From IMG/VR virus record IMGVR_UViG_3300030688_000011: a stretch of DNA of 20,000 nt; one strand, written 5' to 3'. The notes under the pieces were generated by a model, which saw only the letters and a program-made list of their open reading frames with translations, searched no databases and was not told where the DNA came from. Positions 1,700 to 16,923 of this stretch are shown one piece after another; position 1 is the stretch's first letter, and the number at the start of each line of letters is the position of its first letter. The stretch comes from an uncultured virus (IMG/VR IMGVR_UViG_3300030688_000011). Its lineage: Duplodnaviria; Heunggongvirae; Uroviricota; Caudoviricetes. The translations under genes and the position numbers were made by a program.

Positions 1700-1787
1700 G
1701 TTGTGCCTCTACTCAAGAGGACTAATATCATTAAATTCATGTACCAGTGGCTCAGGCGGTTCAATTTGTCAATTTTTGGTAATTTAT

Positions 1788-1886
1788 ACACCTCCTACCC
1801 GGATAGCGAACCACTCCCCGCATCTAGCAGCCTATAAAACGGAGGGGGTCACTAACCCAGCGTAGTCACGTCCGGGTAGGAAGTAT
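1788..1886 (-). ncRNA. Candidate 99-nt structured small RNA of unknown family
   Basis: 16-bp closing stem AUACUUCCUACCCGGA / UCCGGGUAGGAGGUGU with 2 G-U pairs that are valid only on the minus strand, plus internal stems. The 5' end falls exactly 6 nt after a GTAATA motif (1898-1893). Lies in an intergenic gap. Confidence 0.6.
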
Positions 1887-1922
1887 GTTCTATATTACTG
1901 ATTCTTTCGGTTTTTATTTGAA

Positions 1923-8567: not shown

Positions 8568-8645
8568 AGTTCTCCTTGTTATAGGTCACCGACTAAGACC
8601 TTGAATTTGCTTAAAGTCGGTTGGATTACTGCTACTGTATAATAC
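8568..8645 (-). promoter_or_regulatory. GTATTA promoter (8645-8640) and a structured 5' leader with overlapping pairings
   Basis: TGGTATTAT; ACCGACT(8621-8615) / AGTCGGT(8594-8588) and AGGTC(8601-8597) / GACCT(8587-8583) just upstream of the SD. Confidence 0.55.
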
Positions 8646-15253: not shown

Positions 15254-15757
15254 TTACAGGAGAATGAAGTCGAAGAGAACGTCGGGGTGCTCACGCATCA
15301 ACTTGGACTGTACTGCATAGATGGTCTCTCTCCACGCCTTGGAGTTCTCCACCGTTGAACCCGCTGATTGGACGGTGGTAACACGCACCACCATCTCGAC
15401 CTCGCTCCGCACTTCCTTGATGCCTTCCATCTCTTCGAGAGCCCAGTAGGCTGCACGACAGGCATGGCCGAGGTTGCTGATGTGAGCATCGGCCTGATTC
15501 TTGGTGATGAAACCAGTGCAGGGGCATCCGGCGTTGCCGCACATGTCTTCGGCGTGCTCACACTGATAGTGGTTGCAGCCGACGAACCCACAGCACTCGT
15601 ACCCCGGCCAGCAGTCGATGCAGTAGTCTACCCTCTCGCCGTTCTCGTCCGGGCCTCCGTAACCGAAGTACAGGTACGAGCCGCACGTGTAACAGCCCCA
15701 GCCCATCCGCTTACGCAGACCTTTGGGCACCAGACATAGCCAATTCCAATTACTCAT
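15254..15757 (-). CDS. Cys-rich hypothetical protein (167 aa, 13 Cys)
   Basis: CYTC, CIDC, ECC, CNH...CEH and CPC motifs; overlaps the upstream stop. Confidence 0.8.
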   Translation of the reverse strand: MSNWNWLCLVPKGLRKRMGWGCYTCGSYLYFGYGGPDENGERVDYCIDCWPGYECCGFVGCNHYQCEHAEDMCGNAGCPCTGFITKNQADAHISNLGHACRAAYWALEEMEGIKEVRSEVEMVVRVTTVQSAGSTVENSKAWRETIYAVQSKLMREHPDVLFDFILL

Positions 15758-16362: not shown

Positions 16363-16923
16363 TTACCCCTTGCTTCCCCTCTTTATTCGGGGGATGCTGA
16401 AGCCTGATGGACTCTCGATAAAGCTGGGGCGGGACAGCCTATAAGGGCGAAGTAGTGGGCCTATAGTCAGCATTTCATCGTAAGAGTAAAAACTACCTTT
16501 GATTCGATTGCACTCCCAGCAAGATACCACACAGTTGTCTAGTGTATACCCTCTGTCATTATCCTTACGGTCTAAGTGATGTCCACTGGTGTTAGCCCTG
16601 TATCGTTTTCGAGGTAGCCATAGTATGGGGGCAGAGCAGTATGTACATTCTTCCTTTTGTGTAAAGGTCAGGAACTCCTCATAGGTTAGCTCCACAGGAT
16701 GCTGGCCTTGCTTTTTGATGCGGTTATAAGTGTGCTCATAGGGTCGTAGCCGCTCACTCCAAAACTTTGTATTAGCACACCCTCGGCACCTTCCGGGGGT
16801 GTTGTTAACTTTTAGATAGCTTTGACGGCGGGTTATTTCACACCCACAGGTTTCACACAAGAATACATACTCTACATTGTGCTTTCGCTTTACTTTGCGA
16901 ATAGCTGAAGTTGACGGTATCAT
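16363..16923 (-). CDS. Free-standing HNH-family (putative homing) endonuclease with N-terminal zinc ribbon
   Basis: CETC...CRGC; LTYEEF...CTYC...HLDRKDNDRGYTLDNCVVSCWECNRIKG; ATGA overlap with the helicase stop; AT-richer than most of the window. Confidence 0.88.
   Translation of the reverse strand: MIPSTSAIRKVKRKHNVEYVFLCETCGCEITRRQSYLKVNNTPGRCRGCANTKFWSERLRPYEHTYNRIKKQGQHPVELTYEEFLTFTQKEECTYCSAPILWLPRKRYRANTSGHHLDRKDNDRGYTLDNCVVSCWECNRIKGSFYSYDEMLTIGPLLRPYRLSRPSFIESPSGFSIPRIKRGSKG

Follow-up and report, generated by a model that had tools for sequence, protein, structure and literature searches.

The element described here lies in a 20,000-nucleotide (nt) stretch of DNA, hereafter the window, which comprises bases 20701-40700 of the 139,754-base IMG/VR virus record IMGVR_UViG_3300030688_000011 (uncultured virus, Caudoviricetes), a record estimated to be 44% complete. 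Nearly all long open reading frames (ORFs) of the window are on the minus strand, and the element, a structured RNA of 99 nt, sits in a 223-nt gap between two minus-strand genes encoding proteins of 150 and 227 amino acids (aa) (Table 1). As contigs as long as 431,749 bases carry proteins identical to those of the window, the DNA was deduced to come from a giant phage. A small structured RNA with its own promoter had been proposed at this place from the sequence alone (the original prediction). The data presented below leave little doubt that the element is a real, conserved RNA structure of a new family; five other distinct loci of giant phages, whose genomes reach 463 kb, hold homologues of it.

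The minus strand of the element folded with a minimum free energy (MFE) of −51.2 kcal/mol and a z-score of −4.61, and none of 200 shuffled sequences folded as well; the corresponding values for the plus strand were −34.7 kcal/mol and −2.02, with 8 of 200 shuffles as good. When 110-nt windows were tiled over all 55 intergenic gaps of the 139.7-kb record, the element had the lowest MFE and the sixth-best z-score. The fold consists of a long terminal helix (P1), a second helix (P2) and a three-way junction carrying two hairpins, P3 and P4. The 16-bp terminal stem of the original prediction was borne out, with two G-U pairs (U1885-G1789 and U1882-G1792), and the base of P4 was also present as drawn (its CUCCG/CGGGG helix), whereas the middle of the fold was found to differ from that drawing. 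P1 and P2 (16 bp and 8 bp) are broken only by single-nucleotide bulges; in the homologues P1 measures 13-24 bp, and in some members P2 is reached across an internal loop. The conserved single-stranded features were the UAGUG(A) loop of P3, the G-A-G at the P4/P2 boundary and a GC(N)A ahead of the P1 3' arm.

Relatives of the element were obtained through alignments of the proteins encoded near it. The GenBank phage collection contained no DNA match to positions 1500-2300 and no tblastn match to the 227-aa protein or to the NYN-fold protein described below, and neither flanking protein, when used alone as a query against viral contigs, gave relatives. An alignment of homologues of the 227-aa protein retrieved 10 metagenome loci, three of them identical copies of the window, and an alignment of 36 members of the NYN-fold family retrieved 14 viral loci. 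In locus L090, whose 227-aa homologue is 43% identical, a clear homologue of the element was found; its core is ~77% identical to that of the window, and its basal stem is wholly unlike that of the window in sequence, with the pairing kept. A covariance model (CM) built from the window and L090 (CM R1) found L093 (26.3 bits, E 3.5e-5 with filters off) and gave 14.5-14.8 bits for L102 and L103, which are mutually identical, and for L107, each match lying directly after the same NYN-fold gene. At the same place after that gene, L104 has a structure of the same architecture. A further model, CM R2, scored 80.6 bits in the genome of L107 and 68.7 bits in that of L103, both sequences being in its training set, and found exactly one copy in each of these complete genomes (455,708 and 463,033 bases). 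Nothing was found with CM R2 in 1.49 Mb of other phage loci, and 80 ThyX loci of other phages, used as background, gave no CM match. A pattern made for the subfamily re-found L102, L103 and L107 only. P3 carries the UAGUG(A) loop in the window, L093, L102 and L107 and a UGUGA version in L090, and its stem below the loop occurs as GGGU/ACCC, GGAG/CUCC, GGC/GCC and GGG/CCC.

Other candidates were rejected. L002 and L003, from high-GC phages and found by a pattern of palindromic arms, share 10-nt arms with the element, but their interiors do not align and they were treated as unrelated; CM R1 gave at most 14.5 bits, through P1 alone, CM R2 gave no match at E up to 1, and about one arm match of this type was expected by chance on a rough estimate. 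The sites concerned (L002:1490-1600 and L003:303-420) hold an element of another kind, made up of several hairpins and very stable (z −6.1 and −6.7), between a terminator and a gene for a RecB/Cas4-like exonuclease. These two phages are related to each other, and a sub-threshold mraW match lies on the opposite strand in L002. The core pattern CTACGNTGGGTT..GTGACCCC had no match in viral contigs, and its matches in three genome contigs had nothing in common beyond the pattern and no CM match, and were rejected as chance.

The check by homologues and covariation that accompanied the original prediction came out in its favor, with compensatory changes in the stems of the aligned homologues. All six distinct sequences folded independently to the same P1-P2-junction-P3/P4 shape. 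MAFFT alone failed to align the six elements structurally, and the alignment analyzed (A9) was a CM-based one of five sequences, with L104 left out. In A9, 93.8% of 145 cells form standard pairs and 23 of the 31 pairs changed on both sides. None of 500 shuffles reached the observed value on any of five measures, and pairing fell to 38-48% in slid controls, where the partner strand was moved by 1-3 columns. The covariation was judged to be credible in spite of the few, fitted sequences because the independent folds agree and the P1 sequences are completely different. The side hairpin (UGACU/GGUUA) and arm (GUGACC/GGUUCGC) of the original prediction can form in the window, yet in the four A9 homologues only 12 of 20 and 9 of 24 of their cells are paired, compared with 26 of 32 for P2, a comparison that leans toward P2 as A9 was fitted to the P2 model. 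Among the helix cells that are not Watson-Crick pairs, 20 are G-U and 4 are A-C, which argues for an RNA read from the gene strand rather than for a DNA repeat, and the sense fold was more stable than the antisense fold by 11-17 kcal/mol in four of the six loci. Fold energy, covariation and the G-U excess all agree with the earlier claim of an RNA-level structure on the minus strand.

Table 1. Features at and around the RNA element (window positions; homologue cells are those of alignment A9)
Feature	Position	Strand	Basis or remark
Whole structured RNA element, 99 nt (P1, P2, three-way junction with P3 and P4)	1788..1886	-	MFE fold; CM R1/R2 match 1786-1888; covarying homologues
P1 5' arm, 16 nt	1871..1886	-	Pairs with 1788-1803 at 16 of 16 positions; 53 of 64 homologue cells pair, often changed on both sides
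P1 3' arm, 16 nt	1788..1803	-	Holds GGAGG at 1795-1791
Bulged C between P1 and P2	1870	-	Inside conserved ..GACG..; present in the window, L090 and L093
P2 5' strand (GUGACUAC)	1862..1869	-	Pairs with 1806-1814, 8 bp, U1810 bulged
P2 3' strand (GUGGUUCGC)	1806..1814	-	MFE fold and homologue pairing
P3, short hairpin, loop with conserved UAGUG(A) motif	1846..1858	-	Fold and homologue comparison
P4, longer hairpin, variable tip, base CUCCGU/GCGGGG	1816..1844	-	21 of 24 homologue cells pair; two-sided changes at 4 of 6 pairs
Junction A between P4 and P2	1815	-	Within invariant G-A-G; 5 of 5 aligned sequences
GTAATAT box, −10-like	1892..1898	-	One mismatch from the GTATTAT box of the phage
NYN-fold gene remnant (3' end)	1893..1922	-	Aligns with the last ~11 codons of the NYN-fold genes of L090 and L093
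Upstream gene, 150 aa	1923..2375	-	ORF list; family unknown
Downstream gene, 227 aa	1016..1699	-	ORF list; protein family n = 14 (13 homologues in a large protein collection)
Spacer, 88 nt, element to 227-aa gene	1700..1787	-	Carries the conserved upstream region of the gene and its TAGAGG ribosome-binding site

The genomic position of the element was the same in all five other distinct loci of the closer clade, directly after a conserved gene for a protein of 175-190 aa, and is different in the window. In L090 and L093, it begins 6-8 nt past the stop codon of a gene of 180-184 aa (L090:2172-2726; L093:1513-2055), and the gene downstream of it differs between loci. The family of the preceding gene has 131 members, with 54-75% identity among the 120 listed, on contigs up to 463 kb. 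The AlphaFold2 (AF2) model of the protein (predicted local distance difference test score [pLDDT] 93.9) gave as best Foldseek match VPA0982 (2qip, E 5e-5, TM 0.59/0.66), followed by the NYN domains of MARF1 (E 1e-4 to 4e-4), and no Pfam family was detected; it is therefore called the NYN-fold protein. Invariant residues of the family (A6) include Glu, His, Ser and Lys, and from the aligned sequences His, Glu and Asn appear to occupy the places of the usual NYN acidic residues (Asp). In L104 (2015-2050) and L107 (2025-2065), the NYN-fold ORF enters the P1 5' arm and stops at the UAA within a conserved CCUAAA(G/U) internal loop, so that translation of the gene must unwind the element. In the more distant loci L105, L106 and L108-L115, where the gene is 42-48% identical, the 227-aa homologue directly follows the gene with no element between them.

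Neither single-protein nor profile search found the NYN-fold gene in the 139.7-kb record, although more than half of the genome is outside the record and a relocated copy is possible. The ~30 nt leading up to the element (1922-1893) align with the end of the gene (Table 1), and the 150-aa upstream gene corresponds to the L090 gene one position further upstream of the NYN-fold gene. Judging by these alignments, a deletion has taken the NYN-fold gene from the window, leaving its last ~30 bases and the intact element. The proteins flanking the element are 43-54% identical to those of L090, the RNA core is ~77% identical and every helix is intact. Since the helices remained intact while the gene was lost and the flanking proteins diverged, the element was deduced to be under selection without its usual neighbor. 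This retention after loss of the preceding gene supports the earlier idea of an autonomous module, and the function of the element cannot depend on the NYN-fold neighbor in cis.

We tentatively favor a reading in which the family comprises Y-shaped RNAs of ~100 nt, co-transcribed with their neighbors and processed, in a clade of uncultivated giant phages of 300-460 kb. The element would be transcribed within a same-strand polycistronic transcript and would have no strong promoter of its own. Co-transcription was proposed because the neighbors are on the same strand, no consensus promoter lies upstream and no U-tract follows P1. Its long double-stranded base (20+ bp), which would be cut or would bound the RNA, may be a natural substrate for an RNase III-type enzyme, as P1 plus P2 provide the ~20 bp or more of near-continuous double-stranded RNA that such enzymes recognize. 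The conserved junction and the P3 loop would form the recognition surface for a protein, and the product would be either a stable released RNA or an intercistronic processing or stability element. The NYN-fold protein is the obvious candidate partner because the element immediately follows its gene in the relatives.

Several points weigh against this reading. RNase III cleavage and protein binding are proposed by analogy, and the ends, the abundance and the processing of the RNA are ones that we infer. Only six distinct members of the family are known, and the five in A9 were fitted to the model, which inflates the pair counts. L104 was recognized by position and fold only, CM R2 giving it no score at E up to 1. 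The antisense strand is slightly more stable than the sense strand in L107 (−58.4 versus −55.1 kcal/mol), and the two strands are equal in L104. A −10-like box with a spacing compatible with a transcription start site is kept upstream of the element in the window, L090, L093 and L104, and by eye the box of L090 is preceded by a reasonable −35 word at 16 nt; a weak internal promoter upstream of the element is thus possible. Partnership with the NYN-fold protein is contradicted for the phage of the window unless a copy of the gene lies in the remaining ~56% of the genome.

The rival closest to the original prediction is an independent small-RNA gene, in which transcription would start at about A1886 from the GTAATAT box and a free ~100-nt RNA would act in trans as a decoy, in anti-defense or as an RNA-protein partner. 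This was considered unlikely from comparison with the promoters of the phage, which consist of an A/T-rich upstream element, a TGTTCAAA-like −35 word, a spacing of 16-17 nt and a GTATACT or GTATTAT box. Many of these boxes are followed by N6 and ATG and thereby give leaderless genes. With a matrix derived from 16 clear promoter sites, 17 positions in the record scored above 20 bits, whereas the site upstream of the element scored −42 bits (rank 30,059 of 139,695 positions), so that the promoter of its own claimed for the RNA was reduced to a −10-like GTAATAT. With an earlier 10-site matrix, the −10-like box alone ranked 116 of 139,695. The only good −35 word before the element, TTCAAA, is 19 nt away from the box rather than 16-17 nt. 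The equivalent sites of the relatives scored −2 to −25 bits, and promoters that fit the consensus, at 21-24 bits, lie at other places in L090 and L093. Furthermore, the box overlaps the NYN-fold stop codon in L090 and L093, is coding sequence in L104 and L107, and forms part of a lengthened P1 in L102 and L107, and no terminator follows the element.

Other observations are more favorable to such a gene. P1 is preceded at 4-6 nt by a −10-like word of the AGTAATA type in the window, L090 and L093, and in L104 such a word precedes the outer helix. In the window, TAATAT (1897-1892) is followed by 5 nt and then by A1886, which accords with the 6-7 nt expected from a −10 box to the first transcribed base, and the corresponding gaps in L090 and L093 measure 4-5 nt and 5 nt. 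Within their loci, the sites of L102, L090 and L107 ranked 1st, 15th and 5th, respectively. The ~30 nt upstream of the element outlived the deletion of the gene and are, by eye, ~80% like those of L090. The same or a similar word is found where the NYN-fold gene ends even in distant phages without the element. The GTAATA-N6 rule from which the start at A1886 had been derived held in part: the leaderless genes are real and the spacing is right to within 1 nt, but exact GTAATA is found at only 10 minus-strand places in 139.7 kb, and the other nine have no ATG at N6. The nearest clear consensus promoter upstream on the same strand is at window position 8645, and read-through transcription is accordingly the simpler assumption. 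The places named as consensus promoters in the window were 629-613 (-), 8645 (-) and 5968 (-), and the ORF listed as 322-663 probably starts at a leaderless ATG at 615.

A trans-acting role may also be combined with processing. In that case, the element would represent a new class of trans-acting phage RNA, excised from the operon transcript and partnering with or controlling either an NYN-fold nuclease of non-canonical type or a protein by which the host handles RNA, with decoy, inhibitor and specificity subunit as possible roles. Such a class would explain the conservation of the junction and of the UAGUG(A) loop amid drifting helices, and also the survival of the element after loss of its neighbor; we regard it as doubtful.

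Less likely still is a purely cis-acting intercistronic mRNA element, that is, an RNase III-type site and/or a protective hairpin for the flanking cistrons, with no function as a free RNA. The element is indeed placed between same-strand genes, and P1 with P2 gives at least 20 bp of near-continuous helix. The Shine-Dalgarno sequence of the next gene starts within a few to ~16 nt of the end of P1 in L102, L107 and L104, and the stop of the upstream ORF at the internal-loop UAA in L104 and L107 would allow translational coupling. However, a generic processing hairpin needs neither a conserved three-way junction nor a UAGUG(A) loop kept amid stem changes, and the architecture is unchanged although the flanking genes differ between the window and its relatives.

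Two further explanations were judged to be very improbable. A DNA-level inverted repeat (for protein binding, recombination or replication) or an intrinsic terminator, the alternative named with the original prediction, would account for the long inverted repeat and for antisense folds that also beat shuffles in some loci, but it is disfavored by the strand asymmetries given above, by the conservation of pairing rather than of arm sequence, and by the missing U-tract after P1 in all six loci, although classical terminators of a hairpin and U-tract are present elsewhere in the same record; the one terminator-like call in the element was the inner P3 hairpin, at chance level (1 versus 0.6 ± 0.8 in shuffles). 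A leader or riboswitch-like regulator of the 227-aa gene, acting by sequestration of GGAGG as had also been suggested, would suit the GGAGG in the P1 3' arm and the place of the element upstream of that gene in the window, but no start codon lies at a usable distance from GGAGG (the candidates being a GTG that overlaps GGAGG itself, with a 43-aa ORF, and, by eye, an AUU opening a 4-codon frame), the gene has its own TAGAGG and start 88 nt on, conserved in L094 without the element, other genes separate the two in the relatives, where the Shine-Dalgarno sequence of the next gene is outside the stem, and a P1 of 16-24 bp is too stable for switching.

The statement that the RNA belongs to no known family held when checked against Rfam. 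No match at gathering thresholds was obtained in the 20-kb window with Rfam 15 (4227 families, including tRNA, signal recognition particle RNA, hammerhead, prohead RNA [pRNA], Y RNA and 6S), and ARAGORN found no tRNA or transfer-messenger RNA. At E up to 10, the only match in 1690-1930 was to Ysr209; it lies at 1897-1922, outside the element, and scored 13.4 bits where the threshold is 59. No report of such an RNA was found in the literature listings and abstract openings consulted. Both the shared architecture and the compensatory changes expected of a family were observed.

Several known RNAs share features with the element. The RNase III sites of T7 early mRNA (R0.3-R1.3) are simple hairpins, and the lambda N leader also has an RNase III site. 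The element is like these sites in its intercistronic place in a same-strand operon, its long irregular helix of about two turns, the absence of a terminator tail and, in some members, an internal loop; it differs from the T7 sites by the addition of a three-way junction, two further hairpins and a conserved loop motif, and its cleavage is putative. The pRNA of phi29 is ~100-120 nt long, with a long 5'/3' helix, a three-way junction and two hairpins, all of which have counterparts in the element. It differs from pRNA in the lack of an Rfam match (E up to 10), in its unrelated giant-phage hosts and in having no tie to packaging genes. Complementarity between the P3 and P4 loops, compared by eye in the six sequences, was limited to 3-4 nt matches at inconsistent places, and inspection by eye also led us to drop, as inconsistent, a kissing loop-loop interaction and the interpretation of the CCUAAAG/AUGCAA internal loop as a K-turn.

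Regnase-1, an NYN/PIN-like RNase, targets a 3'-untranslated-region stem-loop of its own mRNA. The conserved structure immediately 3' of the NYN-fold gene in the relatives is similar in this respect, but the residues of the NYN family seem non-canonical in sequence and the element of the window persists without the gene. The put antitermination RNA of HK022 is a promoter-proximal, cis-acting phage RNA. Likewise, the element is a compact multi-hairpin RNA after a promoter-like box and ahead of variable downstream genes; its promoter is weak or absent by the phage consensus, there is no similarity of sequence or architecture, and the parallel is speculative. The element also resembles candidate motifs of the Weinberg/Breaker type in being intergenic, supported by covariation, unassigned in function and located in metagenomic phage DNA, and it differs from them in not being among the 4227 families of Rfam 15.

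The neighborhood contains genes for a dCMP deaminase, a ThyX-type thymidylate synthase, an HD-domain protein, a dual-specificity phosphatase, an HNH endonuclease and an SNF2 helicase. The gene for an HNH/endonuclease VII-like protein (window 16363-16923, -) overlaps the end of the SNF2 helicase gene, which it directly follows. ARAGORN found 17 tRNA genes in the record and none in the window. Over 127 aa, the 150-aa protein shares 54% identity with the C-terminal portion of the L090:1158-2120 product; it matched no Pfam or NCBIfam family, its sole weak match (E 1.3e-4) being a PHROG of unknown function. The 227-aa protein had no Pfam, PHROG or NCBIfam match, and its AF2 model (pLDDT 74) had no fold match in the PDB at E up to 0.001. 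Proteins of its family consist of an N-terminal folded domain (~165 aa), a linker rich in Pro and Ala, and a C-terminal tail with the conserved sequence PKQTSLK...IVExFLG, and the gene is a conserved neighbor of the NYN-fold gene even across distant phages. The ribosome-binding region, (A/G)TAGAGG, is conserved throughout the 227-aa protein family, and the 88-nt spacer is strongly conserved with L094, where the element is absent from this place. Other intergenic stretches of the record, outside the window, had z-scores of −5 to −5.9 on the gene strand (record coordinates 135170-135279, 118762-118921, 94844-94953 and 15401-15510) and may be further structured RNAs or terminators.

Covariation-supported motifs of unassigned function are found regularly, and the element constitutes a new RNA family and not a new kind of system, unless it is shown to act in trans with the NYN-fold protein. 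What is known of giant uncultivated phages concerns mainly their proteins, and descriptions of their non-coding RNAs are very few. The promoter consensus and the use of leaderless mRNAs aid the annotation of the genome and may narrow down the host. The element is present as one copy per genome and is linked to two conserved neighboring genes, those of the NYN-fold protein and the 227-aa protein; being small enough to synthesize, probe and assay directly for cleavage or binding, it offers a tangible way into the RNA processing or RNA-protein biology of these phages.

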